A stretch of 64,000 nucleotides of DNA from an uncultured Candidatus Saccharibacteria bacterium (GCA_964569655.1 CAZMTN010000002.1:70197-134196), one strand, 5' to 3'; positions 3,918 to 58,429 are shown, counted from the stretch's first letter. Numbers and translations: made by a program. The notes: generated by a model from the letters alone, not told the origin.

Positions 3918-5522
3918 CTAGCTCTTACGCGGCCCGAAGCCCTGGGTGAACGCGGGGCTTTCCTTCAAGATCAGCACGGTCGGATCGATCAGCTTCTTCA
4001 GGAACGGGCGCACATACGTACGCTCCGCTTCCGGCATCAGCTCGATCGTGATCGCATGCGTCGCAATGACTTCCTGCAGACGCATAATGTCGCGATCATT
4101 CCGGTCGCACGCAACCCACTTGGGATGCGTGATGTTGAAGAACAGCGTCACGGTCTTCAGGTCGAACCGCCAGAGGTCTTCGCTGTCCATCTCCACGTGG
4201 GAGAAGTTCAGCCCCTGGTTGCCGCTCCGCACCATGGTCCGCTGCCGGCCGTTCTCCGGTGGAGCAGGCGGCACCGGGCGTACTTTCGGAGTAGGCGGCA
4301 CCGGCTCCGGACGCACTTTGGGAGTGGACGGCTCCGGACGCACCTTCGGAGACGCGTCATTGGAGTCATCGTCCGCATCACTGCGGCCGGCGTCACCATG
4401 ACGGAGGATGCCGGCAAGCTCGGGGTCGCCCTCGAAGAGCTTTTTCAAGTTCTCGAGAGAACGGCGGCCCAGATCCTGCAGGCGCTCTGCGGCGTTCGAG
4501 TTCTGAGCGCGTTCGATATGTTCGCGCCCCGTCTTCTCGAACCATGCGGTCAGCTGTACGCACAGGTCGATCAGCCGGTCATCCTCGGCGAAGGTCTTCC
4601 GGTTCGCTTCCAAGGTGATCTTCGAATGGAGGATCTCTCCTTCGAAGGTTCCCGACAGGAAAGCTTCCTTCACTTCCTTCTCCAAGAAATCCAGGCTCTC
4701 GAGCTGCTTCGCGAACTGCTTGAACGGCACGCGGAAGGCGTTATTTTCAACGCCGACCAGCACCTCGCCTTTGCGCTTGTCGGAACGCGGAACGACGAAC
4801 AGACGGATCGTCGTCGTTCCCATGCCGCTTGCGACCTTCTCTTCCGGCATGCGTTTCCCGGCGAAGTCACTCGCCCGGATCTGCACCGCCTCGAGCAAAG
4901 CCCCCGTCGCGTCGATCTCGTCGACCCACACGACCGCCTTCCGCTCGCGCATCGCAACCGCGAAGTTCGAGAGGATTTCCTGGCGCAGCTCGGCCACATC
5001 GAACCGGCCGATCTGACGATCGTCCGTGTACTTGATGATGCGAAGCTCGGACATCCATTGCTGGACGCCGTGCTCCTGGCCTTTCTTGGGAATGAGCACG
5101 TCCCGCACCACCTTCTCGAACGGCACTTCCACGTCGGACATCTTCTTGATGTCCTCGCAGATGAACCGCCACCGCCATACCTGCTTTTCCCCCTTCTCGA
5201 GGGCGCAGGTGGTGAAGGTGAACTCCCGGCACTTGCCGAGCGCCGCGATAAGGCCGATGCCGAACTGGCCCAGCTTGTCGCGGCTCTTGGTGGAGTGGCA
5301 CACGCTCTGCAGCGCGTTCTCGAACTTGGCATGCGTAACGCCCGAGCCGTTGTCGCGGATGAAGATCTCACGCTTCTTGCGGTTAATCTCGATCCCGATG
5401 ACGGTGGCGCCGGCATCAAGCCCGTTCTGGACCGCCTCTTTCACGACCTGCAAAAGACGCGGGTACTGTTGGGCAGCGAGGCCGAGTGCCGCGCCAGCCA
5501 TTAACCTGACTTTCGATCCCAT
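3918..5522 (-). CDS. GHKL (Bergerat-fold) family ATPase, MORC / HATPase_c_3-like, 534 aa, with a proline-rich repeat linker and an uncharacterised C-terminal domain
   Basis: N-box VVKEAVQNGLDAGAT, G1 box IRDNGSGV and G2 box GQFGIGL are all present. PKVRPEP is repeated three times. There is no kinase H-box or receiver domain. Confidence 0.7.
   Translation of the reverse strand: MGSKVRLMAGAALGLAAQQYPRLLQVVKEAVQNGLDAGATVIGIEINRKKREIFIRDNGSGVTHAKFENALQSVCHSTKSRDKLGQFGIGLIAALGKCREFTFTTCALEKGEKQVWRWRFICEDIKKMSDVEVPFEKVVRDVLIPKKGQEHGVQQWMSELRIIKYTDDRQIGRFDVAELRQEILSNFAVAMRERKAVVWVDEIDATGALLEAVQIRASDFAGKRMPEEKVASGMGTTTIRLFVVPRSDKRKGEVLVGVENNAFRVPFKQFAKQLESLDFLEKEVKEAFLSGTFEGEILHSKITLEANRKTFAEDDRLIDLCVQLTAWFEKTGREHIERAQNSNAAERLQDLGRRSLENLKKLFEGDPELAGILRHGDAGRSDADDDSNDASPKVRPEPSTPKVRPEPVPPTPKVRPVPPAPPENGRQRTMVRSGNQGLNFSHVEMDSEDLWRFDLKTVTLFFNITHPKWVACDRNDRDIMRLQEVIATHAITIELMPEAERTYVRPFLKKLIDPTVLILKESPAFTQGFGPRKS
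4255..4350. repeat. Imperfect tandem DNA repeat (~27-nt unit, 3 copies) encoding the PKVRPEP repeats
   Basis: The units ggcaccgggcgtactttcggagtaggc, ggcaccggctccggacgcactttgggagtggac and ggctccggacgcaccttcggagacgcg are visible in the sequence. Confidence 0.6.
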
Positions 5523-42028: not shown

Positions 42029-43027
42029 GTGGCCTTACTCGATTCACGTAATCTCGTCATCTCAGGCTCGATCGTCATCGCGATGATCCTGGTTTTGGGC
42101 GCCTACATCGCTTCGGGACGCCATGTGCCGGTGCTCACCGTGAGCGCGGAATCCACCGAAGAAATCCTTAAGGAATACGCAGCGAAGGACTCCGACAAGG
42201 ACGGCCTCCCGGACTGGCAGGAAGCGCTCTACGGCACCGATCCCGAGAATCCGAATTCGGTCCGTGCGGATATCACAGACAGCCAGGCGGTTGCCCAAGG
42301 TCTCGCCACCCCTCGCTACGCGGGGCAGAGCATCCCGATCACCGCAGGAGGGGAGCCGATTTCGGTACCAGGCATCGTGGCGGCTCCTGATTCGCTCACC
42401 GAGCAGTTCTCGCGTCTTTTCTTCGAGAACTACCTCAGCACCCGCGGCAGCGAGGTGCCGTCCGCACAGGCGAGCCAGCAGTTCGTCACGAGCGCCGTGA
42501 GCGAGCTCGTCGCATCGCGCTCGCAGGTGAACGCGTACTCCGCGGAGGACATCAAGGTCAGCGGTTCGGGCGCAGGCGCGCTCCGCGCGTACGCGGCCGT
42601 TGCCGAGTCCACTATCCTGAGCCGCAATCCGGGACACGATGCCGGTACCGTAGCGTACTTCCAGGACGCGGTGCAGAAGGACGACAAAGAGGCACTCAAG
42701 AAAGTAGGGGAGATTGGCAGGGCAGTGGAGAGCGCGGCCAAAGCACTTACCCTGATCAACGTGCCGAGCGAAGCTGCTGCCGCTCACCTCACGTTCGTGA
42801 ACGCGATGGCCGGGCTCGCGAAGAGCACGCTCGACCTCGCCGCGTTCGACACCGATCCGCTGCGCGCCATGGTCGGCCTCGGGCTTTACGAGCAGAGCGT
42901 CCAGGAATACGGCGCGGCATACAAGGCCGTGTACCAGGTATTCGCGAGCGCGGGCGTGACGCTCAGTGCCGGGGAGCCGGGCTATGAGTTTTATACGTTC
43001 GCCCAATCAGCCGCTAACCTCTATTAG
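42029..43027 (+). CDS. Hypothetical membrane-anchored protein (N-terminal transmembrane segment), first gene of the T4SS-like cluster
   Basis: Transmembrane helix IVIAMILVLGAYIA. No motif. Confidence 0.5.
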   Translation: MALLDSRNLVISGSIVIAMILVLGAYIASGRHVPVLTVSAESTEEILKEYAAKDSDKDGLPDWQEALYGTDPENPNSVRADITDSQAVAQGLATPRYAGQSIPITAGGEPISVPGIVAAPDSLTEQFSRLFFENYLSTRGSEVPSAQASQQFVTSAVSELVASRSQVNAYSAEDIKVSGSGAGALRAYAAVAESTILSRNPGHDAGTVAYFQDAVQKDDKEALKKVGEIGRAVESAAKALTLINVPSEAAAAHLTFVNAMAGLAKSTLDLAAFDTDPLRAMVGLGLYEQSVQEYGAAYKAVYQVFASAGVTLSAGEPGYEFYTFAQSAANLY

Positions 43028-43029
43028 CC

Positions 43030-44499
43030 ATGAACCGCACCATCTCATTCGCGTTCGGCCTCCTGCTCATCCTCCCGATAGCGGTAACTTCCGTTCCGCG
43101 CCCGGCGCACGCCTTCATGGACGGCGGCGGATCCCTCATGCTCGTCGCGAAGGAGTACGGCCTCGACTCGGTCGCGTGGATCGTCGCGAAGCAGGCGGTG
43201 AGCGCCATGACGAGGAGCACGGTCAACTGGATCAATTCCGGATTCAACGGCTCTCCGGCGTTCATCACCAACCTCGACGAATTCCTTATGCACGTCGGCG
43301 ACGTAGCAGCGATGGCGTACATCGACGAGCTCCAGAACAATCCGTCTCTCAAATCACCCTTCCAGAACAAGATCGCTCAGACGGCGTACACGGGCTATCT
43401 CCTCGCGACGTCCGAGGACGCCTATGTGCGTCTCAATGGCTACGACCTCAACCAGGTAACCTACTACGACGAGGAATTCCTCAGAGGGAATTTCGGTCGC
43501 GGCGGATGGGACGCATGGTTCGCAGCCGCGATGCGTCCGCAGAATAATCCGTATGGCGCGCAGATGCTCGCCATGAACGGCCTCGAGGTGGCGGTGAGCG
43601 GATCGAGGAACAACCGTTTGATCGAGCTTAACTGGGGCGGGGGATTCATGTCGTGGTGCGATAACGTAGGCGCGGGCGAGACGTACGAGGACGCGGAAGG
43701 CGGAGCCATGATCGACAACAACGGCAATTTCGTCGGCACGCCGGGCTCTCCGGAGCTCGATGCGGAGGCGCAGGTGGCGGCAGGAAATTTCGTAAACACC
43801 AGCCAGCCGAATCCGGCGGAGACCTGCACGGACCAGCACGGCAACAAGGGGCAGATCAAGACGCCGGGTTCGGTGATCCGCGACCAGATCAACCATACCC
43901 TCGGCCTTTCGGGAGACCAGCTCGTCTCCGCGGACGAGCTCAATGAGATCGTCTCGGCGCTCATGTCGCAGCTCACGCAGCAGGTGATGGGCGCAGGCGG
44001 CCTCTCGGGAGTGTCGCGTTCCTCGAGCGGCGGACGATCGTATCTCGACAGGGCGGCGTCTGATCCTGCTGGAGCGCAGGCAGCAGCGGGCACCCTGGAT
44101 ACCGCCATCATCTCGTACCGGACGCAGCTCCAGGGATATGAGAGGGATTGGGAGACGCTCAATACGCAGATCGAGGCCGCATCATGCTCTAACGATCCGG
44201 TTGTGACCGGCGCGAGAGCGGATTACGCCCGCGCCCAGGCACAGATCTCGACTGCCTTCACCAGGCTCGACGAGGTTCAGAACCTCATGAGCTCCGTGAA
44301 TTCAGGGGCAGGGGGCGGGGGCGAAGCGATCGGCGTGATTGAGAGCGCAAGCAGCAAATTCCAGAGCATCATCTCGTCCCCGCCGACCGCAGCGGAGATG
44401 GCGAGGATCAACGCAGAGGCCGTTGATAATTCCAGCAGCGAGAACGGCCAGGAAACGCTCTACGTGAAGCTCGAGGAAGAGGCGCGAAGATGCAGGTAA
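43030..44499 (+). CDS. Hypothetical secreted protein (signal peptide, 489 aa)
   Basis: Signal peptide with an AHA cleavage site. Translationally tight with its neighbours. Confidence 0.5.
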   Translation: MNRTISFAFGLLLILPIAVTSVPRPAHAFMDGGGSLMLVAKEYGLDSVAWIVAKQAVSAMTRSTVNWINSGFNGSPAFITNLDEFLMHVGDVAAMAYIDELQNNPSLKSPFQNKIAQTAYTGYLLATSEDAYVRLNGYDLNQVTYYDEEFLRGNFGRGGWDAWFAAAMRPQNNPYGAQMLAMNGLEVAVSGSRNNRLIELNWGGGFMSWCDNVGAGETYEDAEGGAMIDNNGNFVGTPGSPELDAEAQVAAGNFVNTSQPNPAETCTDQHGNKGQIKTPGSVIRDQINHTLGLSGDQLVSADELNEIVSALMSQLTQQVMGAGGLSGVSRSSSGGRSYLDRAASDPAGAQAAAGTLDTAIISYRTQLQGYERDWETLNTQIEAASCSNDPVVTGARADYARAQAQISTAFTRLDEVQNLMSSVNSGAGGGGEAIGVIESASSKFQSIISSPPTAAEMARINAEAVDNSSSENGQETLYVKLEEEARRCR

Positions 44500-44505
44500 T
44501 ACGCT

Positions 44506-46737
44506 ATGGGAATCTGGAACACACTACAAACTTTCACTAAGAAGATGATGTCGGACGCCAAAGCGCGCCCGCTGTCGTTCCTTATCTTCGTAGCGGTGTT
44601 CCTTCTTTCCCCAGCAATCGCATTCGCTCAGGTAAAAACTGGCGATGCCGCGGCGTCAAACCCTTTCTCGGTCTTGGGCGACTGGACCGTAGGTGCCGCG
44701 TTCGCCGGCATCAGCTACTCCATCCTCACATTCTCGAACTTCATCCTTTACATGGCGGGGTCTCTTTTCAATTGGGTAGTGGAGTACACCGTCTTCGGGT
44801 TTGCGAACATCATCGGCGGGACCGTGGGACTCATCGCGGCATGGAGCGTACTCAGGGATATCGCTAATATCGCGCTCCTTTTCGGATTCATCTTCATCGG
44901 CGTAGCGACCATATTGGACATCCACGGATACGAGGCGAAGAAGACGCTCCCGAGACTTATCATCTTCGCCGTGCTCCTGAACTTCAGCCTCCTCGCATCG
45001 CAGATGGTCATAGATACGTCGAACATCTTTAGCGCGGCCATCTATCAGCAGGCAGGCGGGCAGGAGTGCAACGCTATAGATAAGAAAGCGTGCGCGAATA
45101 ACGGCATCTCGGGGAAGATAGCGCAGATGTCGGGGATTACTACGCTGTTCGATTTCAGCCAGAAGAGCGCTGAAACCGACGCTTCTTTCACGCGGTGGGG
45201 CATTACCTATCTCATGATGTCCGTGTTCGTAACCATCACGGCCGTGGTGCTCCTTGCAGGAGCCATCATGCTCATCATCCGAGCGGTGGTCCTGATCTTC
45301 CTCATGGTCTTGTCTCCGATAGGCTTCGCGGGCCTCGCTATCCCGCCCCTCGAGCAGCATGCGCGCACCTGGTGGAGCAAGCTCATATCCCAATCCTTCT
45401 TCGCGCCGGTTTTCCTGCTGCTGATCCTGGTAAGCATCAAGATAGCAGAGGGGATCCAGACGTCGCTCAAGGCACCGACGCTCGTGCATGCGCTCACAAG
45501 CGGGGACGTGAACACGGTCCAGGCCGTCGTCCTGTTCGCGATCTTCATCGGGTTCATGATCATGTCCTTGGTCGCGGCGCAGCGCATCGGCGCTATCGGC
45601 GCTGGATTCGCCGCGAACGCTTCGTCGGCACTCGTATACGGTTCGATGGCGTACGGCGCCAATACCGTGGTCGGCGGCGGCTCATACCTCGCTCGCAAGA
45701 CCATAGAGAGAAAGAGCAAGGGCGGGAAAGTAGCGCGCGCGGTGGTGAACTATGGATTCCGTCCGCTCGAGAACGCGAATCTCGACATGCGCAGGATGCC
45801 GGGCATGGCGGCTGCGCTCGGCGTGGGCGGAATCACGACCGGCGCGAAACCGGTAGAGCATGGCACGTTTAAGGACGTCAAGCATATATATGATGGCTTC
45901 AGGAACATGGAGACCAATAAGAGGCTGAACGCGCAGTATGACGACGAAAGGGATGCGCTTAGGCTCGAGAAGGAGGCGCATGGCCCGGGAGCGCTTTCTG
46001 CGGCCAGCCTCAAATACCTGAGCGGCCTGAGTGCGAAGGAGCTCGAAGCGCTCCACGGCATCCAGGAGGGCCTCGAGAAGCTCGCATACAACCTCTCACC
46101 TGAGCAATTCGAGGCGCTCATGAAGAGCGAGAAGCTCAGCGACATGCAGAAGGGCAAGCTGAAGGAAGGCCGCTTCGCGAAGCTCACTGGCCACGCGCAG
46201 GACGCTGCGAACGCTGCGAATCCGACAGCGAAGGCGACTGAGGTCGCGAAGGTGAAAGCTGAGCTTAAGAAGCTGAACAAGAGCGACCTCGAGAATCTCC
46301 CTGCGGCCCTCCTTGAGAAGCAAGGGGCGGGCGAGATCGTGCTCGCAGAGCTCTCCGAGAAGCAGCGCGAGGACCTCGCGGGGAGCAAGAAGCGAACTGG
46401 CGGGGAGCGGGATAACGTGCGCACCAGCAGCCCGATCGGGCTATTGGAAGAGAAGTTCAATAACGCTCCTACTCTGTCAGCTGGGGCTCGAGCGGTACGA
46501 AGTGAGATCGGCAACCTGACGCCTGCCCAGGTGGGCCAGCTGGATTCGAAGATCCTGATCCAGCCGGAAGTTTCTGAGGCGCTGACGCAACCGATCCTTA
46601 CGGAACTCCAGGAGAAGAAGAAGCTGAAGGTCAAAGAGATGAAGGCTATCGGCGACAATATTCGCAAGAGTTCCGCTGTCGCGCCGAAGCTTAAGGAGTT
46701 CGTAACTACCGGCCCAGGCGCAGCTATGTGGTCATAA
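44506..46737 (+). CDS. TrbL/VirB6-like polytopic membrane protein with a long charged coiled-coil C-terminal extension (743 aa)
   Basis: Signal-like N-terminus, 6 or more transmembrane helices in the first ~400 aa, and a K/E-rich C-terminus. It sits next to VirB4-like and VirB3-like genes. Confidence 0.55.
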   Translation: MGIWNTLQTFTKKMMSDAKARPLSFLIFVAVFLLSPAIAFAQVKTGDAAASNPFSVLGDWTVGAAFAGISYSILTFSNFILYMAGSLFNWVVEYTVFGFANIIGGTVGLIAAWSVLRDIANIALLFGFIFIGVATILDIHGYEAKKTLPRLIIFAVLLNFSLLASQMVIDTSNIFSAAIYQQAGGQECNAIDKKACANNGISGKIAQMSGITTLFDFSQKSAETDASFTRWGITYLMMSVFVTITAVVLLAGAIMLIIRAVVLIFLMVLSPIGFAGLAIPPLEQHARTWWSKLISQSFFAPVFLLLILVSIKIAEGIQTSLKAPTLVHALTSGDVNTVQAVVLFAIFIGFMIMSLVAAQRIGAIGAGFAANASSALVYGSMAYGANTVVGGGSYLARKTIERKSKGGKVARAVVNYGFRPLENANLDMRRMPGMAAALGVGGITTGAKPVEHGTFKDVKHIYDGFRNMETNKRLNAQYDDERDALRLEKEAHGPGALSAASLKYLSGLSAKELEALHGIQEGLEKLAYNLSPEQFEALMKSEKLSDMQKGKLKEGRFAKLTGHAQDAANAANPTAKATEVAKVKAELKKLNKSDLENLPAALLEKQGAGEIVLAELSEKQREDLAGSKKRTGGERDNVRTSSPIGLLEEKFNNAPTLSAGARAVRSEIGNLTPAQVGQLDSKILIQPEVSEALTQPILTELQEKKKLKVKEMKAIGDNIRKSSAVAPKLKEFVTTGPGAAMWS

Positions 46738-46740
46738 GGT

Positions 46741-47346
46741 ATGAATAACGAGATTCCTACAGAGCGCGTCCTAGAGGCATACGGAGCCGCACCGAGCTTC
46801 GTTCGCGAAGCGTTCAATGCCGAGAAGACCACCACATTCCTCGTATATCTCCGCGAGAAGTACGGGTTCCATATTGATACCGCAGGCATGCTAGGGAAGC
46901 AGGTGGGCTACCTCTTGCTCGGCCTCGTAAACCCTTCCGATTTCTACCGCGCCATCGTCGCGGCCGGCATGAGCGAGGATATCGCTAAGAAGGTGACTGA
47001 GGAGATCAACCAGAACATCTTCATGCCGCTCAATCAGGGGCTGCGCGCAAGCAACATGGAGGTAGTCCGCACTCCGCCTCCGCCTCCGCCGGCTGTTGCC
47101 CGGCCTATGCCAGCTTCCGAGCCTCCGATGGTGGTGCGTACGTTGCCTCCCCTCCAGGCGGCTCCGCCTATACCGGTGAAAGCTCCTCAGCCTGCTTCCG
47201 TACCGCCTCCGCCTCCAACGCCGCGTCCCGTTCCTCCAGTACCCGCGAATCTTCCCGGGGTGGCACCGGAGCCTAAGACGGCCATTCCGGCTCCTCGTCC
47301 GGCAAGCAAGTACGGCGCAGATCCATACCGAGAGAGCTTTGATTAG
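46741..47346 (+). CDS. Hypothetical protein with a proline-rich C-terminal half
   Basis: PPPPPPAVARP...PPPPTPRPVPPVP. Confidence 0.45.
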   Translation: MNNEIPTERVLEAYGAAPSFVREAFNAEKTTTFLVYLREKYGFHIDTAGMLGKQVGYLLLGLVNPSDFYRAIVAAGMSEDIAKKVTEEINQNIFMPLNQGLRASNMEVVRTPPPPPPAVARPMPASEPPMVVRTLPPLQAAPPIPVKAPQPASVPPPPPTPRPVPPVPANLPGVAPEPKTAIPAPRPASKYGADPYRESFD

Positions 47347-47386
47347 CCTTGTCTTGCGCGAGGGCCTTGGTACCATTCATATATAT

Positions 47387-47761
47387 ATGAGCGAATCGCC
47401 CCCGAGCAGAGAGAGCGTCTCACGGCCAGAAAGAGGAGTAGAGGGCACGCCATACACGGCACCTGTAGACGTGGCTTCGGACTCCGATAGCTCAGAACTC
47501 AGCCAAGTGCGCGCGAATCTCGAGAAGCATAAGGAGCAGCCAGCTTCGGCGAGCGGCAGTCACGGTCATGGCCACGAGAGTCCCGTGACGAAGGTCGGCA
47601 TGGTCGGATACGGCATCGTCGCCACCATGTTCTATCTCTTCTGGCAGGAGCTCAAGAAGACCAAGGGCCTGTTCGAAGGAGGCGGCGGGGGAGGCCACGG
47701 CGGAGGCGGGCACGCGAAGAAAGAAGACCACGGACACGGCGGAGGCGGGCACGGGCACTAG
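47387..47761 (+). CDS. Hypothetical small membrane protein with a His/Gly-rich C-terminal tail
   Basis: Transmembrane helix VGMVGYGIVATMFYLFW; tail GGGGGGHGGGGHAKKEDHGHGGGGHGH. Confidence 0.4.
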   Translation: MSESPPSRESVSRPERGVEGTPYTAPVDVASDSDSSELSQVRANLEKHKEQPASASGSHGHGHESPVTKVGMVGYGIVATMFYLFWQELKKTKGLFEGGGGGGHGGGGHAKKEDHGHGGGGHGH

Positions 47762-47804
47762 TTATTACCTTTTTCAATACGCACTCCTGCTATACTTATA
47801 GCTA

Positions 47805-48215
47805 ATGGAGTATCAGGTTCCTCAATTCATCGAGGTAGAGGACAAGATCTTTGGCCCATTCACGCTGAAGCAATTCATTTATATCGCCGGCGGCGCGGGC
47901 GTCACCGCCATCGCGTTCATCTACCTCCCGATGATCTTCGCGCTCCTCGTAGCGCTTCCGGTCGCGGGACTCGCCGGCGCGCTTGCGTTCTACCGGATGA
48001 ACAACAAGCCGTTCATCAACGTCATGGAGGCGTGGTTCACCTACTTCACCGGCGGGAAGCTCTATATCTGGAAGAAGGGGGACAAGGTGGCGGAAGCGAC
48101 GCCGACGGTCCAGCCCCAGGTAGAGGAGGCGCGGGCGAAGCTGAAGCTCACGCCGAACAAGCTGCATGACATCGCGTGGTCGCTCGACGTGAAGAATAGC
48201 GAGCCACAACCGTAA
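47805..48215 (+). CDS. PrgI/VirB3-like small membrane protein of type IV secretion systems
   Basis: The N-terminus QFIEVEDKIFGPFTLKQFIYIAGGAG, followed by two transmembrane helices, matches the PrgI-family pattern. It lies directly upstream of the VirB4-like genes. Confidence 0.5.
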   Translation: MEYQVPQFIEVEDKIFGPFTLKQFIYIAGGAGVTAIAFIYLPMIFALLVALPVAGLAGALAFYRMNNKPFINVMEAWFTYFTGGKLYIWKKGDKVAEATPTVQPQVEEARAKLKLTPNKLHDIAWSLDVKNSEPQP

Positions 48216-48216
48216 T

Positions 48217-48846
48217 ATGGCTACTGCAAGCGCAACCCAGTCATTCGTGCCGGTAAAGGAAGTACGCAACGGCGTCATCATCCTCAAGAACGGGGAATAC
48301 CGGGGCATCCTCATGTGCTCCTCGCTCAACTTCGCGCTCAAGTCGGAGACGGAGCAGCGCGCCATCATCGGCGGCTTCCAGAATTTCCTCAATACCCTCG
48401 ACTTCTCCGTGCAGATCAACGTGCATTCTCGCAAGATGGATCTGCGCCCGTACCTCGAACTCCTTTCCGCGCGCACGGACGCGCAACAGAGCGAGCTCAT
48501 GAAGATCCAGGTACGGGAATACATGCAGTTCGTCCGCAGCTTCTCGGACAACGCGAACATCATGACCAAGATGTTCTACATCGTCGTGCCGTACACGCCG
48601 GCGGTAGCGTCCCAGGTGAAAAGCGCGCTCCCGTTCTTCCAGAAGGAGACTTCGGCGACGCAAGGAACCACGAGCTCCTTCGACGAATACCGCGTCCAGC
48701 TCGAGCAGCGAATGTCTTTGGTCGCGAGCGGGCTCTCTTCTACGGGGCTCCGCGCGGTGATGCTCGGCACCGAGGAGGTGATCGAGCTCCTGTACCGCTC
48801 GTTCAACATCGGCGAGCTCGAGAGCCCGATCAGGCTCACCCAATAA
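48217..48846 (+). CDS. Hypothetical 209-aa protein in frame with the downstream VirB4-like ATPase; possible detached VirB4 N-terminal domain
   Basis: A single TAA at 48844-48846 separates it from the ATG at 48850 in the same reading frame. Confidence 0.5.
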   Translation: MATASATQSFVPVKEVRNGVIILKNGEYRGILMCSSLNFALKSETEQRAIIGGFQNFLNTLDFSVQINVHSRKMDLRPYLELLSARTDAQQSELMKIQVREYMQFVRSFSDNANIMTKMFYIVVPYTPAVASQVKSALPFFQKETSATQGTTSSFDEYRVQLEQRMSLVASGLSSTGLRAVMLGTEEVIELLYRSFNIGELESPIRLTQ

Positions 48847-48849
48847 CCT

Positions 48850-50664
48850 ATGTCCTTGCTTGATTTCATAAACCGAAAAAAGAAAGAGGAAGTACAGGTC
48901 ACTCCTGTGCTCCCCAAGGACATCTACGCGCAAGGTACCCTCGACCTCGCGGACACGATTGCGCCGGCGGCGCTCAAGGTTGGCGCTCGCGAGATCGAGC
49001 TCGGCCAGAAGTTCGCTCGCTCGTTCTATACGATTTCATACCCCCGCTTCCTCGCGGACAGCTGGTTCACACCGATCATCAATCTCGACAAGGTGCTCGA
49101 CATCAGCATCTTCATCCACCCGATTGAGACCGGCATGGTGCTCCGCCAGTTCCAGAAGAAGGTGGCCGAGGTACAGAGCCAGATCTCGGAGAGGGAACAG
49201 AAGGGCTTGGTCCGCGACCCGGTCCTCGATACGGCATACCAGGACCTCGAGGGGCTCCGGGACAACCTCCAGCAGGCGCAGGAGAAGCTCTTCGAAGTAG
49301 GCCTCTACCTCACGCTCTACGCGGACTCCAAGGAGGAGCTCGACAAGACGGAAGGGGAGGTGCGCGGCATCCTCGACGCCAAGCTCGTGTACACCAAGCC
49401 GGCCGTCTTCCAGCAGGAGCAGGGCTTCCGCTCCACGCTCCCGCTCGAGCTCGACGAGCTCGCGGTGCGCTCGAAGCTGAATTCCTCTCCGCTCTCGTCC
49501 ATGTTCCCGTTCGTCTCCTTCGACCTTACGAGCGACCGAGGCATCCTCTTCGGCATCAACCGCCATAACTCATCTCTCATCCTCTTCGACCGGTTCTCGC
49601 TCGAGAACTACAACTCGGTGGTCTTCGCGAAGTCCGGTTCCGGAAAGTCCTACGCGATGAAGCTCGAGATCCTACGCTCCCTCATGTTCGATACGGACGT
49701 GATCGTCATCGACCCGGAACGCGAATACGAATACCTCGCCGAAGCGACGGGCGGGCGCATGTTCAATATCTCGCTCTCGAGCGAGCACCATATCAACCCG
49801 TTCGACCTGCCTGCGGTCCGCGAGGACGAGGAGCCGGCCGATATCCTGCGCAGCAACATCATCAACCTCGTCGGGCTCTTCCGTATCATGCTCGGCGGCC
49901 TCACGCCCGAAGAGGATGCCATCGTCGACCGCGCCATCACGGAGACCTATGCCCTCAAGGACATCACGGGGGAGAGGGACTTCACCGGCGTCCAGCCGCC
50001 GCTCCTCTCGGACTTCGAGGCGGTACTCGCCGGCATGGAGGGAAGCCAGTCCCTGGTCCAGCGCCTTTCTAAATACACCCGCGGCACCTGGTCCGGCTTC
50101 ATGAACCAGCCGACCAATATCGACATCAACAAGCAGTTCATCGTCTTCTCCGTCCGCGATATGGAGGATGAATTGAAGCCGGTGGCGATGTACATCATCT
50201 CCCACTTCATCTGGAACGCGGTGCGCCGCGAACTGAAGAAGCGCCTCCTCGTGATCGATGAGGCATGGTGGATGATGAAGTCTGAGGACACGGCGTCTTT
50301 CCTGTACTCCCTCGCGAAGCGCGGACGCAAGTACTATCTTGGCGTTGCGACCGTCACCCAGGACGTGGAGGACTTCCTCGCATCCCCGTACGGCAGGCCG
50401 ATCCTCACGAACTCCTCCATCCAGATGCTCCTCAAGCAATCCCCGACGACCATCGACGTCCTCCAGAAAACGTTCAACCTCACGGAAGAGGAGAAATACC
50501 TTCTCCTCGAATCAGGAGTAGGGGAGGGCCTCTTCTTTGCTGGCCTCAAGCACGTCGCCATCAAGGTCGTCGCTTCCTACACGGAGGATCAGATCATCAC
50601 GTCGGATCCGTCCCAGCTCCTCCAGATCAAGCGCGAGAAGAGCCGGCTGGATGGCGCCGCCTAA
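48850..50664 (+). CDS. VirB4/TrbE/CagE-family type IV secretion ATPase (C-terminal ATPase portion, 604 aa)
   Basis: Walker A AKSGSGKSY, Walker B LLVIDEAWWM, and C-terminal motifs TQDVEDF. Confidence 0.85.
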   Translation: MSLLDFINRKKKEEVQVTPVLPKDIYAQGTLDLADTIAPAALKVGAREIELGQKFARSFYTISYPRFLADSWFTPIINLDKVLDISIFIHPIETGMVLRQFQKKVAEVQSQISEREQKGLVRDPVLDTAYQDLEGLRDNLQQAQEKLFEVGLYLTLYADSKEELDKTEGEVRGILDAKLVYTKPAVFQQEQGFRSTLPLELDELAVRSKLNSSPLSSMFPFVSFDLTSDRGILFGINRHNSSLILFDRFSLENYNSVVFAKSGSGKSYAMKLEILRSLMFDTDVIVIDPEREYEYLAEATGGRMFNISLSSEHHINPFDLPAVREDEEPADILRSNIINLVGLFRIMLGGLTPEEDAIVDRAITETYALKDITGERDFTGVQPPLLSDFEAVLAGMEGSQSLVQRLSKYTRGTWSGFMNQPTNIDINKQFIVFSVRDMEDELKPVAMYIISHFIWNAVRRELKKRLLVIDEAWWMMKSEDTASFLYSLAKRGRKYYLGVATVTQDVEDFLASPYGRPILTNSSIQMLLKQSPTTIDVLQKTFNLTEEEKYLLLESGVGEGLFFAGLKHVAIKVVASYTEDQIITSDPSQLLQIKREKSRLDGAA

Positions 50665-50670
50665 TCCTCT

Positions 50671-51132
50671 ATGGAACAGCAGGCAAAGGACAACGGCGCT
50701 TCGCAAGAGAAAAAGAAGCGCATCGGAAACGTTACTGCCGTCCTGATGATCTTCACGGCGGTCTTGTTCGACCTCGCGCAGGGGCTATTGTTCTTCCTGA
50801 ATCCTATCCCCGTCCTCGGGTTCATGCTCGACCTGGTAGCATCTTATTTCATCACGTTCGTCTCCGGAGCCGTATTCCTCCTCTGGTTCATGCTGTGTCG
50901 CGTGAACTACTTCGATTCCCGGTCCGCGAAGAAGTTCTTCATCGTGCTCATTGCCGGTATCGTCGAGCTCACGCCCTTCATAGACACGCTGCCCGGCATA
51001 AGCCTGGGCGTCATCGCCCTCGTCGTCCAGGTGCGTCTCGAGGACCGGAGCTCGAAGAAGGCCGTGCAGAAGCTGGCAGGACGCAAGCTCCGTCCGATGC
51101 GCGGCATTAATCCGCAGGCCCACCGTCCGTAG
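50671..51132 (+). CDS. Hypothetical small membrane protein (3-4 transmembrane segments)
   Basis: Hydrophobic helices; sits in the T4SS-like cluster. Confidence 0.45.
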   Translation: MEQQAKDNGASQEKKKRIGNVTAVLMIFTAVLFDLAQGLLFFLNPIPVLGFMLDLVASYFITFVSGAVFLLWFMLCRVNYFDSRSAKKFFIVLIAGIVELTPFIDTLPGISLGVIALVVQVRLEDRSSKKAVQKLAGRKLRPMRGINPQAHRP

Positions 51133-51159
51133 CAGGGAACAGGGCGGTATACTACAGTC

Positions 51160-52146
51160 ATGCGAAAAGCCCTGGCCTTCCTCATCATCCTTGGAGCCAC
51201 CGCCATCCTTCCCTCCTTTGCCCACGCGCAGAACCTGGGAGCTGAGCCGCTCACCATCTCGGTCAGCCCTGAATTCCCTGAGCCGTATCAGACGGTGACG
51301 GTGACGCCACGCAGTACTCTCCTGAACCTCGCGGCGAGCGCGGTAACGGTCTCCGTCAACGGGAAGGTAGTTAGCACCGGCTCTGGAGGAGCATCGACTT
51401 CGTTCCAGATGGGAGGTCCCGGCCAGACGGCTGTCGTGACGGTATCTGCGACCGGTCCGGACGGTTCTTACCAGGCATCCGTGACGCTCCGCCCTTCGAA
51501 TATATCCCTTATCGTGGAGCCGATGTCCGTGACGCACCCCCTTTATGAGGGAGGTAGCCTCCTCGCTGCCGAGGGACGCGTCCGCCTCATTGCGCTCGCC
51601 GATATGCGTTCTAGCGCCGGAACGCCAATAGCAGCCGCAAATCTCGTATATAACTGGCAGCTCGGCAACCAGCAGCTTGCCGCGCAATCCGGTATCGGCA
51701 GGTCGGTACTCACCGCCACCGGACCCCTCCTGTACCGCGATGCGACCGTCACAGTGACTGTTTCCACGCCGGACGGCAGCGCTTCAGGGCAATCGAGGAC
51801 GGTTCTCGAGCCGGTAGAGCAGCAGGTCCTCGTATACCGCAACAATCCGCTCCTCGGGCCGGACTTCAGCAAGACAATCACCGGCGAGACGAGCCTTTCG
51901 GAAGGGGAGGACTCTTTCCGCGCGGTCCCGTATTTCTTCCCGACCATGCCAAACTTCTCCTGGAGCGTAAATGGCGCGCCGAGCGGATCCGAGCAAGTGA
52001 TCACTGTCCGCTCTAACGGGGACGGCGCGGGCAGCGCCCTCTTGTCTGTGGAGGCTTCACAGCCAGGCACCTATCTGGCCGCGAGCAATTCGTTCACGGT
52101 CAGGTTCGGTGAGGACACCGGCTTATTCGATTTCTTTGGCTTATGA
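51160..52146 (+). CDS. Hypothetical secreted protein (signal peptide; Ig-like/beta-rich)
   Basis: Signal peptide ending AHAQ, then a Ser/Thr/Val-rich beta-like sequence. Confidence 0.5.
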   Translation: MRKALAFLIILGATAILPSFAHAQNLGAEPLTISVSPEFPEPYQTVTVTPRSTLLNLAASAVTVSVNGKVVSTGSGGASTSFQMGGPGQTAVVTVSATGPDGSYQASVTLRPSNISLIVEPMSVTHPLYEGGSLLAAEGRVRLIALADMRSSAGTPIAAANLVYNWQLGNQQLAAQSGIGRSVLTATGPLLYRDATVTVTVSTPDGSASGQSRTVLEPVEQQVLVYRNNPLLGPDFSKTITGETSLSEGEDSFRAVPYFFPTMPNFSWSVNGAPSGSEQVITVRSNGDGAGSALLSVEASQPGTYLAASNSFTVRFGEDTGLFDFFGL

Positions 52147-53174
52147 TGAAAGGCATGATTCCGCACGTCGCCGCCCTTACCGTGCTCTTGTTGCCGAGCG
52201 TCGCATTCGGGCAGGAGAACCTCGTCACGCTGACCAATATCCCCGGCCTCACCCAGGATATGGGCGGCGCTTCGAAGCTTCCCGAGTTCCTCAACGGCCT
52301 CTACAACTTCTGTATCGGCATCGCGGTGGTGCTCGCCGTGATCCAGCTCATCCGCGCCGGCATCGAGTACATGACGGCAGGGGGGAGCATCGGCAGCACC
52401 GAACACGCGAAGCACCTCATCACCACCTCAATCCTCGGCCTGGTGCTCGTCCTCTCTCCTTATATAGTTTTCAGCATCGTGAACCCGAGGATCCTGGACC
52501 TCGAGATCAGCGCCGACAAGCTCGAGACGACGCTGCCGACCGGGACACCGGGTGCAGCCGGGAACAATGGCGCAGAAACTACTACCGAGACGAAGGACGG
52601 CTGTAAAATTTCCACAAACGACACGACGCAGGCCAAGACGGTGACGTGCACGGGAAAGACTCCGCAGGAAGCAACGTCAAAGGCGGCGAACACCGTGAGA
52701 GGGGCGTGCGGAGCGGGAGCCCATGTCCAGGTAGGTGAAGAAGGCGATGCAAAGGGCACGAATCCGTCCAAGGATGCCGTCGGCGCGAACGGCCAGACGG
52801 TCAAAGGCACCAATACTCAGTTCGAAGCGACGGGATACTGCAGCCCGAAGAAAGGCGTGTCGCTGGTCTATTTCGGGGTGAGCACCCGCCCTTCGGTCAC
52901 GGAGGGGATAGCGATCGGGGGAGACGATCAGTACTATGCCGCTATTATCTACGGGGCAGAAGAGAATGAGAAGTGGGCCTCCGCATGCGGCAAAAAACTG
53001 CGCACTGACAGGGGAATGATATTCGATGTCAACCAGCCGAAGAACATGATCCAAGGCGGATTCCAGTGCCCGATGCAAGATGAGAAGTTCAAGCAGATGG
53101 TCCAAGGCCAGATACAGGGCAAGGGGACGGTCGGCGTCTGGTGCGCGAACGTACAGACGTACTGCGCCCAGTAA
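52143..53174 (+). CDS. VirB2/TrbC-pilin-like N-terminal domain fused to a Cys-containing extracellular domain
   Basis: A signal peptide is followed by two hydrophobic helices (LYNFCIGIAVVLAVIQLI, LITTSILGLVLVLSPYIVFSIV), the typical T4SS pilin topology. The C-terminus has 8 Cys. ATGA overlap with the upstream gene. Confidence 0.45.
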   Translation: MMKGMIPHVAALTVLLLPSVAFGQENLVTLTNIPGLTQDMGGASKLPEFLNGLYNFCIGIAVVLAVIQLIRAGIEYMTAGGSIGSTEHAKHLITTSILGLVLVLSPYIVFSIVNPRILDLEISADKLETTLPTGTPGAAGNNGAETTTETKDGCKISTNDTTQAKTVTCTGKTPQEATSKAANTVRGACGAGAHVQVGEEGDAKGTNPSKDAVGANGQTVKGTNTQFEATGYCSPKKGVSLVYFGVSTRPSVTEGIAIGGDDQYYAAIIYGAEENEKWASACGKKLRTDRGMIFDVNQPKNMIQGGFQCPMQDEKFKQMVQGQIQGKGTVGVWCANVQTYCAQ

Positions 53175-53177
53175 CGT

Positions 53178-54425
53178 ATGCAGAAAGCCCTTACCATCGC
53201 CGCAATCGTCATCGTGATGCTCGGCCTCGCGGTCGGCATCTACTTCCTGTTCTTCAGCACGGACTCGGGTCTTGTCACCGAGGACGGGCTCCCGGGAAAC
53301 AACCCCTTCGGCGGAGCGGGCGGGGAAGTGACCCCTGACGTGCTCCCGGACACGGTCACCGATACCCCTGAAGACAGCGCGGAGCAGATCGCGCCGCGCC
53401 TCGTGAAGATCGCCGCGAAGCCGGTAGCCAGGGGAGCGGTCGCGATCATCGCCACCACGACGCAGACGGTCTCCCTCGCGACCACCACAGCCACGTCTAC
53501 GCCCGAGTACCTCACCACGGTCGAGGTGCGCTACATAGACCGCGCCACGGGCAACATGTACAGCTACGCGGCTCTGGACGGCGAGACCACCCGCCTCACC
53601 AACCGCACCATCCCGGGCATCCAGGAAGCCTCATGGCTCCCGAATGGCTCCCTCGCGTATGCGCGCTACATCTCCGCGGATACGGGCAGCGAGCACATAG
53701 AGACTTACGCGCTCCCGGCGGACGGCAGCGACGGCCGCTTCCTTGCGCGCGACCTCGGCACCATCATCCCGCGCACGGACGGCAGCGTCTTCACCTTCAC
53801 CCCGAGCTCGAGCGGCTCGGTAGGCACGGTCGAGGACCCGGACGGCTCCGGCGCCGCCACGCTCTTCTCCTCCGCACTCTCTTCTATCGTACTCAAAGGC
53901 GACACGAACTTTTCCGCGCACACGAAGCCCTCTATCGAGCTCCCGGGCTACGCGTTCGTCGTAAACGGAGAGACCGGAGCATTCACCAAAGTCGTGGGGC
54001 CTATGGCAGGGCTCTCCGCTCTCATCGATCCCGCAGGGAAGCAGGTCCTCTACAGCGGCTTCACCAATGGCGCGCTGCGCCTCGCGCTCGTGAACGCGTC
54101 CACGCGCGAAGTCATCGCGCTCCCGGTGCAGACGCTCGCGGAGAAATGCGTGTGGACCCGGGACAGCCTCTCCGCGTACTGCGCGGTGCCGGTCTCGTTC
54201 CCGATCGCGAACCTTCCCGATGCCTGGTACCAGGGCACGGTGTCCTTCACGGACCGCATCTGGCGCATCGACCTTACCGCCCGCGTCGCGACGCTGGTCG
54301 CGGACCTGCCGGACCTCATCGAGGACGAGCAGATAGACGCGGTGGCGCTCACCCTCGACCCGAACGAAGGCACCCTCGTCTTCCAGAACAAGCGGGACGG
54401 CTCCCTCTGGGCCTACTCCCTTTAG
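53178..54425 (+). CDS. Hypothetical membrane-anchored protein with a beta-propeller-like (TolB/WD40-like) ectodomain
   Basis: N-terminal transmembrane segment, then repetitive beta-strand-like blocks. Confidence 0.45.
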   Translation: MQKALTIAAIVIVMLGLAVGIYFLFFSTDSGLVTEDGLPGNNPFGGAGGEVTPDVLPDTVTDTPEDSAEQIAPRLVKIAAKPVARGAVAIIATTTQTVSLATTTATSTPEYLTTVEVRYIDRATGNMYSYAALDGETTRLTNRTIPGIQEASWLPNGSLAYARYISADTGSEHIETYALPADGSDGRFLARDLGTIIPRTDGSVFTFTPSSSGSVGTVEDPDGSGAATLFSSALSSIVLKGDTNFSAHTKPSIELPGYAFVVNGETGAFTKVVGPMAGLSALIDPAGKQVLYSGFTNGALRLALVNASTREVIALPVQTLAEKCVWTRDSLSAYCAVPVSFPIANLPDAWYQGTVSFTDRIWRIDLTARVATLVADLPDLIEDEQIDAVALTLDPNEGTLVFQNKRDGSLWAYSL

Positions 54426-54429
54426 ATAA

Positions 54430-55161
54430 TTAGGCAGCCGCAGCCTTAGGGATGAGCGGCGTTCGTCGTACGAAAAGCTCCTGCACGATGGTGACGATGT
54501 TGGTGGTGATGAAATAGAGCCCGACCGCTCCGGAGAGCTGGTACGCGACGATCGCGATGATGAACGGGATCACGTAGCGCGCCTGCATGGCCATCGCGCG
54601 GCCGAAGTCCTCGGACATGGTGCTCTTCTCGGACTTTGCGGGCGTCGGCATGGAGAAGTATGCCGCCAGGTACTGCGTACCGCCGGCCAGCACCGCGAGC
54701 ACGATGCTCTTCCCGGTGATCGGGAAGATGCCGAGGAAGTCGGTGGAGATCACCGCCGGGATGGAGACGAAGGAGTAGAGGATATCCATGTTCACGCTCG
54801 GGAGCGCCTCGCCCATGAACACCCAGTAGAGGGCGAAGAGGACAGGCAGCTGGATGAGGAGCGTGAGGAAGCTCGCGAACGGGTTGATCTGGTACTTCTT
54901 GTAGAGAGCGAACATCTCCTTCGCCTGCTTCTCCTTATTATCCTTATGCTTCTCGCGGATCTCGCGCAGCTCCGGCTCCACTACCTTCATTGCGCGCTGG
55001 GTGCGCACCGCTGACAGAGAGAGCGGCAGGATGATGACCTTCACGGCCACCGTGACCGCGATGACGGCCAATCCCACGTCTCCGCCCGGCACCACCCCCA
55101 CGAAGAAGATGAGGAGGTTGTAGATCGGGTTGTAGAGGTACGTGTAGAAGAGGGAGACCAT
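54430..55161 (-). CDS. yidC: Membrane protein insertase YidC (short form)
   Basis: AVIAVTVAVKVIILPLS and QINPFASFLTLLIQLPVLFALY are characteristic segments, with 5 transmembrane helices. It lies in the rpmH-rnpA-yidC syntenic block. Confidence 0.85.
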   Translation of the reverse strand: MVSLFYTYLYNPIYNLLIFFVGVVPGGDVGLAVIAVTVAVKVIILPLSLSAVRTQRAMKVVEPELREIREKHKDNKEKQAKEMFALYKKYQINPFASFLTLLIQLPVLFALYWVFMGEALPSVNMDILYSFVSIPAVISTDFLGIFPITGKSIVLAVLAGGTQYLAAYFSMPTPAKSEKSTMSEDFGRAMAMQARYVIPFIIAIVAYQLSGAVGLYFITTNIVTIVQELFVRRTPLIPKAAAA

Positions 55162-55184: not shown

Positions 55185-55490
55185 TTAGCCGAGCGCGTGA
55201 AGGAGCTTCTCCAGTTCCTGCCTGAGGACAGGGAAGGGGAGCTTCGGGCTTCCGGCCTTAGCAAAGACTACGAGCGCAATATGGGGGTAGTCGTGGCGCG
55301 CGAGCACGCTCATGATGCGACGCTTCAGAAGATGCCGGTCCACGGCCCTGGCCGCCACCTTCTTGGACACCACCACGGCCATACCGGTCCCGGTAGACCA
55401 GGAAAGGCTCAGATGGGGACTCTGAGCCTTGCGCGCCCTCTGGAGAGCGCTGAAACCTGCCCTAGACAGCCTGCGCCGCCTGGGAAGCAT
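55185..55490 (-). CDS. rnpA: Ribonuclease P protein component
   Basis: LPRRRRLSRAGFSALQRARK and VVVSKKVAARAVDRHLLKRRI are basic RnpA motifs. It sits downstream of rpmH. Confidence 0.75.
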   Translation of the reverse strand: MLPRRRRLSRAGFSALQRARKAQSPHLSLSWSTGTGMAVVVSKKVAARAVDRHLLKRRIMSVLARHDYPHIALVVFAKAGSPKLPFPVLRQELEKLLHALG

Positions 55491-55494
55491 AGGA

Positions 55495-55638
55495 TTAGAC
55501 GACCGAGAGCTTGGCTCGGCCCTTGCGGCGGCGCTTAGCAATGATCTTCTTGCCGGAAGCGGTCTTCGTGCGGGCACGGAAGCCGTGGGTGCGGGCGCGC
55601 TTTCGCTTCTTCGGCTGGTAGGTTCGCTTCGTGGACAT
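55495..55638 (-). CDS. rpmH: 50S ribosomal protein L34
   Basis: [46 protein letters not shown]. Confidence 0.9.
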
Positions 55639-57328: not shown

Positions 57329-58429
57329 ATGGTCATCACTGTTGAGAAGAATATCTTCAGGGAAGCTGTGCATACCGCATCCCGATTCGCTGAGCGGAAG
57401 TCAGCGACTCTTCCGGCATTGTCTGGCATCGCCATCATCGCGGGAGACGACGGCATCAAGCTCCGCGCCACCAATCTCGAGACCGGCATCGACCTCAAGG
57501 TGGACGGCTCTATCCGGAGCCAGGGCGTGGTCGTAGTCTCCGCCGCACTCCTGCGCGACATCACAAGCTCCTTCTCCGGATCCGGCTCCATTACGCTCGA
57601 GCACGCGGGGGATACGGCGGTCATAACCTCAGGCATGGGAAAGAGCACCTTGAAGACGCTCCCTTCCGAGGATTTCCCCGTCATCCCGCTCCCGCAGTCT
57701 TCCGAGACTACGCTCTCCATCGCGGGGAATCTCCTCTCCGCGCTTCTCAATAGTGTCGTCGCCTGCGCATCAACATCCTCCGTACGCCCAGAGCTCGCGA
57801 GCGTGCTCCTCGCAGGTGAGAGCGGGACCTTGAAGGCAGTCGCCTCGGACTCCTTCCGTCTCGCGGAGAAGAAGGTGACGCTCGAGAAGGCGGGGAAGCC
57901 GTTCTCTATCCTCATCCCGGCAAAGAACGCGGCAGATATCCTCCAGACGATTCCGGAGAGCGAACTCACCCTCACCATGGACGAGCACCAGTGCGCATTC
58001 TCCTGGAGCGGCGGCGTGGTCACGACCCGCCTTGTAGCCGCAAGCTATCCGGACTACACCCAGATCATCCCGAAGACCTTCGCTGCGGAGGGTACCGTGC
58101 TCAAGAAGGATTTCGAATCGGTACTGAAGCGTACCGCGGTATTCTCTGACACCTTCCAGAAGGTCCGCATCGCTTTCGACGTGAAAGCGAAGCAGATCGT
58201 CTTCGCCTCCCGCAACGCGGACGTCGGCGAGACCTCAGAAACCATCCCCGGAGCGCTGTCAGGGGAGTCTCTGGAGCTTTCCTTCAATCACCGGTACCTC
58301 GCCGCGCCACTGCCCCTAATTTCGGCAGAGAACGTCACCATCTCGCTCTCCGGCATAGGGAGGCCGCTCGTCATGCGCGGCACGGGGGACGCGTCCTTCC
58401 TCTACCTCGTGATGCCGATGAACCAATAG
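57329..58429 (+). CDS. dnaN: DNA polymerase III beta sliding clamp
   Basis: Three-domain clamp pattern with a conserved C-terminal MPM motif (LVMPMN). Confidence 0.9.
   Translation: MVITVEKNIFREAVHTASRFAERKSATLPALSGIAIIAGDDGIKLRATNLETGIDLKVDGSIRSQGVVVVSAALLRDITSSFSGSGSITLEHAGDTAVITSGMGKSTLKTLPSEDFPVIPLPQSSETTLSIAGNLLSALLNSVVACASTSSVRPELASVLLAGESGTLKAVASDSFRLAEKKVTLEKAGKPFSILIPAKNAADILQTIPESELTLTMDEHQCAFSWSGGVVTTRLVAASYPDYTQIIPKTFAAEGTVLKKDFESVLKRTAVFSDTFQKVRIAFDVKAKQIVFASRNADVGETSETIPGALSGESLELSFNHRYLAAPLPLISAENVTISLSGIGRPLVMRGTGDASFLYLVMPMNQ

Follow-up and report, generated by a model that had tools for sequence, protein, structure and literature searches.

A predicted two-polypeptide VirB4 ATPase in an origin-adjacent type IV secretion operon of Patescibacteria

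The window analysed here, a stretch of 64,000 nucleotides with 60% G+C from an uncultured Candidatus Saccharibacteria bacterium, encodes a type IV secretion system (T4SS) in a single tightly packed operon (Table 1). Our analysis centred on two neighbouring genes of this operon, one for a small protein and one for an ATPase. The codon TAA (48844-48846) closes the 209-aa ORF, CCT (48847-48849) follows, and the ATG at 48850 starts the 604-aa ORF; the start coordinates 48217 and 48850 both equal 1 mod 3, which places the two ORFs in one common frame. Specifically, the ATPase signatures are confined to the 604-aa ORF (Pfam domains P-loop_TraG with an E-value of 3e-26, AAA_10 and DUF87), in whose translation a Walker A-like GSGKS was seen, while the 209-aa protein is soluble, of alpha/beta type and devoid of ATPase motifs. 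Two observations of the first-pass annotation, namely that the ORFs share a frame with only TAA CCT between them and that ATPase motifs occur downstream but not upstream, are thus confirmed by the ORF coordinates and the Pfam matches, respectively.

Table 1. Features of the T4SS operon and of the adjoining origin region, with coordinates counted from the first letter of the window.
Feature	Coordinates	Strand	Supporting matches
Whole T4SS operon, 12 ORFs, tightly packed	42029..54425	+	
VirB6/TrbL-like polytopic membrane protein, 743 aa	44506..46737	+	Pfam TrbL PF04610, E 4.6e-6, 27.0 bits (cut-off 25.9)
PrgI family (VirB3-like) small membrane protein, 136 aa	47805..48215	+	Pfam PrgI PF12666, E 3.4e-9, 37.5 bits (cut-off 27)
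N-module gene, 209 aa, TrsD-like / 'TraC-like domain' protein	48217..48846	+	
Gene junction TAA-CCT-ATG (stop, 3-nt spacer, start)	48844..48852	+	
VirB4-family T4SS ATPase core, 604 aa	48850..50664	+	NCBIfam conju_CD1110, Pfam P-loop_TraG, PDB 4AG5, pSK41 TraE alignment
VirB2-like T4SS pilin-domain protein, 343 aa (weak)	52143..53174	+	Pfam T4SS_pilin PF18895, E 5.3e-5, 23.7 bits (below cut-off 26.6); TrbC E 2.7e-3
yidC	54430-55161	-	
rnpA	55185-55577	-	
dnaA	55736-57082		
dnaN	57329-58429		

The genes of the operon follow each other with gaps of 2, 6, 3, -8, 43, 1, 3, 6, 27, -4 and 3 nt in order, and the stop of the PrgI gene lies 1 nt before the 209-aa ORF. Six of the 11 junctions are in frame, three of these with an identical 3-nt gap, and four consecutive ORFs (at 48217, 48850, 50671 and 51160) all lie in one frame. 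Any pattern resembling an in-frame stop between positions 42029 and 54425 should consequently be read against these tiny gaps and frame-sharing ORFs. No Shine-Dalgarno motif was recognisable in the 25 nt upstream of any of the 12 operon genes. GC content at third codon positions (GC3) is 0.85 and 0.86 for the two ORFs, the same as in neighbouring genes, and ranges from 0.65 to 0.87 across the operon, in which all ORFs are intact. The TAA-CCT-ATG junction is likewise similar to the remaining junctions of the operon. Seven operon ORFs (332, 489, 201, 140, 153, 328 and 415 aa; within 42029-44499, 46741-47761, 50671-52146 and 53178-54425) gave no Pfam match above cut-off, with the 328-aa ORF showing a weak Cadherin-like match (E 4.9e-4), and VirB8-like and VirB1-like components were not recognisable by sequence in the operon. 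Since yidC, rnpA, dnaA and dnaN are found directly downstream, the T4SS locus is chromosomal and lies at the replication origin.

The 604-aa ORF matched the NCBIfam model conju_CD1110 with 377.4 bits (E 1.4e-112), above the curated cut-off of 325, and P-loop_TraG with 92.4 bits against a cut-off of 25.8. Among solved structures it matched the VirB4 C-terminal domain of PDB 4AG5 (E 1.6e-44) and TrwK (E 3e-6), and it gave weak Pfam matches to two N-domain models, CagE_TrbE_VirB and TraC_F_IV, at their C-terminal ends. The same operon encodes VirB3-like (PrgI) and VirB6-like (TrbL) membrane components. The 604-aa ORF is accordingly annotated here as a predicted VirB4 ATPase core that comprises the P-loop C-terminal domain and the distal portion of the N-terminal domain.

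Full-length VirB4 profiles were informative with regard to the small protein. On NF045971 (conju_CD1110, 752 positions) the 209-aa ORF covers positions 2-165 (E 1.8e-6) and the 604-aa ORF positions 182-733; on NF045975 (VirB4_plasma, 894 positions) the corresponding ranges are 102-233 (E 8e-9) and 292-893. The ORFs cover successive positions of the same VirB4 models and are therefore collinear halves. A naturally fused homologue of 797 aa (P0195) has the same layout, residues 5-213 corresponding to the small ORF and residues 226-791 to the ATPase ORF, with residues 1-28 of the ATPase ORF lacking a counterpart. Its gene follows a PrgI gene and adjoins dnaA in another patescibacterial MAG (locus L081), so that both the position of the PrgI gene and the origin neighbourhood are the same as in the window; in the staphylococcal plasmid pSK41 a weakly matching PrgI-like gene is at this position as well. 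The N-terminal part of the fused protein carries Pfam PF26593 'TraC-like', as do homologues of the small ORF: precomputed annotation lists PF26593.2 on an identical protein (P0001) and on all 120 homologues listed. With the 209-aa ORF as query, Pfam-A returned no family at E <= 0.01 or at E <= 10, a negative result that is uninformative because the PF26593 model seems to be missing from the copy used, and a profile of 86 N-family sequences found no match among PDB sequences at E <= 1.

When the fold of the small protein was compared with known structures, TrwK/VirB4 was the only strong structural match, and the fold matched is that of the VirB4 N-terminal region of a solved structure. Because the fold search left the matched TrwK residues unreported, we placed the small protein on TrwK residues ~1-190 by collinearity. 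The ATPase ORF aligns from its residue 254 with TrwK residues 445-741; this puts residue 1 of the ORF at about TrwK residue 190, so that the first ~190 residues remain for the small protein. A linker of low confidence holds the break: the tail of the small protein (residues 199-209) has a pLDDT of ~59. On these profile and model comparisons, the 209-aa ORF is a homologue of the N-terminal part of VirB4, namely of the first ~200 residues of the N-terminal domain. The alignment of both ORFs to VirB4 profiles that the first-pass annotation had proposed thus yielded collinear matches, and its suggestion that the 209-aa ORF represents the VirB4 N-terminal region is upheld by three independent lines, namely these profiles, the fused homologue and the TrwK fold match.

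For the orthologous junctions, 80 species-level genome loci with relatives of the 209-aa protein were collected and both genes were located in each; junction counts refer to the 76 loci with enough downstream DNA. The loci belong to MAGs of Paceibacteria/Patescibacteria (CPR), and amino acid identities of the 76 orthologues to the window proteins are 52-71% for the small protein and 65-90% for the ATPase. All 76 loci encode a small gene with its own stop and an ATPase gene with a separate ATG, which aligns with residue 1 of the ATPase of the window, and the fused state occurs in none of them. The stop codons of the small gene are TAA in 54 loci, TAG in 15 and TGA in seven. Frame offsets of 0, +1 and +2 were counted 28, 16 and 32 times, respectively, which means a common frame in 28 loci and different frames in 48; the 28 in-frame junctions compare with 25 expected and are indistinguishable from the one-third chance rate (binomial p = 0.54). 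The most frequent gaps are 2 nt (20 loci), 1 nt (13 loci) and 3 nt (12 loci), and 62 of the 76 fall between -4 and +12 nt, with overlaps of -1 and -4 nt among them. About ten loci carry inserts of 92-468 nt at the junction, three of them with a whole extra gene. The comparison with related genomes called for in the first-pass annotation therefore returned the two-gene state throughout, and its description of a VirB4 gene interrupted by an in-frame TAA misleads, since in an operon as compact as this one the common frame is coincidental.

The junction inserts of two loci (L006, 4637-4722, and L046, 4653-4752) form a long imperfect hairpin with arms of 24-31 nt and a 38-nt loop. In three others an ORF of ~119 aa lies inside the insert (L040, 4634-5101 with the ORF at 4678..5037, and L050 and L062 at the equivalent junction). 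The ORF of L040 encodes a '23S rRNA-intervening sequence protein' (PF05635, E 1.8e-24) and that of L062 is flanked by 37-nt inverted repeats. The inserts with the ~119-aa ORF represent an rRNA-IVS-type cassette within a protein-coding operon.

Homologues of the small protein at large numbered 4300 at E <= 1e-3. The best 120 of these are nearly all stand-alone proteins of 204-225 aa, with one outlier of 178 aa, and close relatives with 84-93% identity are likewise 208-209 aa long. In the alignment, the C terminus of the small protein of the window coincides with that of its homologues, and query coverage is 100%. Among 150 cluster representatives at 50% identity from an exhaustive HMMER search, one was fused. 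About 35 of the 150 representatives are 280-443 aa long; in three of these, relatives from other metagenomes (P0130, P0198 and P0245), the N-module is extended by a long tail of low complexity, with much Pro, Ala, Gln and Thr and without a match to the ATPase ORF.

Several explanations of the junction have to be weighed against these data. A recent nonsense mutation that is turning a ~813-aa VirB4 gene into a pseudogene, in a T4SS locus that is decaying, would fit the in-frame ORFs with only TAA and CCT between them as well as the existence of a 797-aa fused relative. It is at odds with the stop and separate ATG in 76 of 76 species-level orthologues, with the 208-209 aa length of the closest relatives and with an operon of intact ORFs and uniform GC3, and TrsD homologues are reported to be essential to a relative in culture (PMC12102498). 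The uninterrupted ORF by which a pseudogene would be recognised among its orthologues was seen in 0 of 76 loci and 1 of 150 representatives. The probability of this explanation is negligible: both fresh nonsense mutation and locus decay, raised as options in the first-pass annotation, are refuted by two-gene orthologues that include 48 with different frames. Much the same applies to its third option, a false stop created by a sequencing or assembly error, which has nothing in its favour beyond the in-frame arrangement and can practically be dismissed. The same boundary recurs in assemblies produced independently by many studies and projects and in all 76 orthologues, which refutes an error, and the small protein ends where its homologues end, at full query coverage.

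Programmed stop-codon readthrough or another form of recoding that yields a full-length fusion from the two ORFs would need a conserved frame and stop context. Reading through the in-frame TAA would indeed give a product collinear with the fused homologue, but in 48 of the 76 orthologues the genes lie in different frames, each of the three stop codons occurs, and the gaps extend from -4 to 468 nt, from overlaps to the inserts with an extra gene. Scanning the entire window with Rfam at gathering thresholds detected no RNA family, and hence no known recoding element. As a conserved feature readthrough, also named in the first-pass annotation, is refuted by the out-of-frame orthologues, and as an explanation of the window it is highly improbable; occasional background readthrough may occur but would not be conserved. 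Taken together, 76 of 76 stops and separate ATGs with frame sharing at chance level therefore rule out nonsense mutation, sequencing error and conserved readthrough. A different view would regard the 209-aa ORF as an unrelated accessory gene upstream of a complete, short VirB4 of ~600 aa. Some VirB4 proteins of monoderm bacteria are short, the orthologues are two-gene, and the small protein has neither a match in the Pfam library used nor a PDB sequence match. Against this, it matches N-terminal positions of two full-length VirB4 HMMs after which the ATPase continues, the fused homologue has the same collinear layout, TrwK/VirB4 is the one strong match by structure, and the Pfam family of the small protein is named 'TraC-like'. 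We regard an unrelated neighbour as very unlikely. The case that, according to the first-pass annotation, would have made the small ORF an ordinary separate gene, two-gene orthologues without similarity to VirB4 N termini, is found in its first half only: the orthologues are two-gene, yet the N-terminal similarity is present.

A recent study by Quinonero-Coronel et al. 2025 (PMC12102498) identified TrsD as the most abundant T4SS component in Patescibacteria, with 2,272 homologues of which 1,664 lie beside virB4, and found elsewhere only in the pGO1 subclass of monoderm T4SS. The authors called these TrsD homologues remotely homologous to the N-terminal portion of VirB4, listed the homologue of Ca. 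Southlakia epibionticum ML1, for which Wang et al. 2023 (PMC10633639) described an essential T4SS, as essential, and remarked that patescibacterial T4SS are often near the replication origin. The word TrsD is absent from the main text of Guglielmini et al. 2014 (PMC4027160). The gene pair of the window belongs to the same lineage as the patescibacterial TrsD and VirB4 pairs, as judged from the Paceibacteria/Patescibacteria MAGs in which its relatives occur, and shows the same order of PrgI, TrsD-like gene and virB4 with VirB6-like and VirB2-like pilin genes nearby; the position of the operon beside dnaA/dnaN agrees with the remark on origin proximity (PMC12102498).

Outside Patescibacteria, the closest parallel is found on pSK41/pGO1 (pGO1 subclass of MPF_FATA), where a PrgI-like gene is again followed by genes for a ~220-aa protein and a VirB4-like ATPase of ~600-670 aa; in pSK41 these are TrsD with 227 aa and TraE with 672 aa. 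Residue 10 of the window ATPase aligns with TraE residue 7 and the alignment continues end to end (E 4e-37), with a lysine-rich N terminus common to both, and in a comparison with the profile of the small protein, its residues 8-204 align with TrsD residues 33-217 (hhalign E 1.8e-4, 174 columns, probability 48%). The fission point is thus the same as in the window. Identities are low, with 15% to TrsD and 23% to TraE, the gap is 14 nt in pSK41 and 3 nt in the window, and pSK41 is a conjugative plasmid with relaxase and coupling protein whereas the window locus is chromosomal and origin-proximal. The small protein does have a TrsD-like position, being a ~200-aa protein between the genes for a PrgI/VirB3-like protein and a VirB4-like ATPase, and a near end-to-end TrsD alignment at the hhalign probability given above. 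With 18.8 bits (E 1.1e-3) on NCBIfam NF041427 TrsD/TraD it remains below the curated cut-off of 200 and is not a member by the NCBI threshold. The kinship to TrsD suggested by these alignments is remote, since 18.8 bits stand against 200 and the hhalign probability is 48%. In single-chain VirB4/TraC proteins (TrwK of R388, PDB 7O41/7O42/8RTB; the CD1110 family of Bacillota; the fused homologue P0195) the two window proteins together cover the full profile collinearly. The small protein has the fold of part of TrwK, and the ATPase corresponds to TrwK residues 445-741 and the C-terminal domain of 4AG5. The difference is that the N-terminal domain is undivided in the single-chain proteins, whereas that of the window is divided between two polypeptides.

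We therefore consider it highly probable that the two ORFs are real genes, each translated separately, of a Patescibacteria (Paceibacteria-like) T4SS on the chromosome, and that together they take the place of a single-chain VirB4. Their separation into two genes is ancient and subject to selection, as it is present in every orthologue examined, whatever the frame, and has its fission point in common with pSK41 TrsD/TraE. The gene pair is an ordinary instance of a known and already described two-polypeptide VirB4, and the first-pass annotation, which had named a two-polypeptide VirB4 as one alternative, is borne out on this point by the stop and separate ATG in all 76 orthologues and by the N-terminal homology.

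With respect to function, the R388 structure gives an indication of what the small subunit might do. [quoted passage not shown] By analogy, and given the PrgI gene immediately upstream, the small subunit probably makes the contact with the membrane-anchored VirB3/PrgI protein, holding the ATPase core in the inner-membrane complex. It would thereby tether the ATPase core to the membrane translocon and may also help to mediate the N-domain contacts between VirB4 subunits. Gaps of 1-3 nt together with the lack of recognisable Shine-Dalgarno motifs in the operon make coupling of the two halves by termination and reinitiation likely, which would supply both in roughly equal amounts.

For annotation, our results imply that no pseudogene, frameshift or recoding site should be flagged at this gene pair, and that the small ORF, usually listed as 'hypothetical protein', can be named a VirB4 N-terminal (TrsD-like / TraC-like) subunit. 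The two-gene arrangement of VirB4 is already known and no new question is raised by our result; the modest addition is firmer evidence for the homology and the break point shared with pSK41. The structural match and the natural fused homologue firm up the published remote homology between TrsD and the VirB4 N-terminal part, and a break point common to Patescibacteria and pSK41 is consistent with the proposed kinship to monoderm conjugation machines. A more far-reaching idea, which we consider rather unlikely, is that fission of VirB4 at this linker was a single ancient event common to Patescibacteria and the staphylococcal pGO1/pSK41 class, and that it is perhaps functionally exploited. If this were true, a free N-module on PrgI/VirB3 would form a stable membrane platform at which the ATPase core docks and undocks, allowing a regulated or exchangeable motor that is impossible for single-chain VirB4 systems. 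The junction inserts of 92-468 nt, including at least two hairpins and three of the 23S-rRNA-IVS type, would be in keeping with a boundary at which separate processing of the mRNA for the two halves is tolerated or used.
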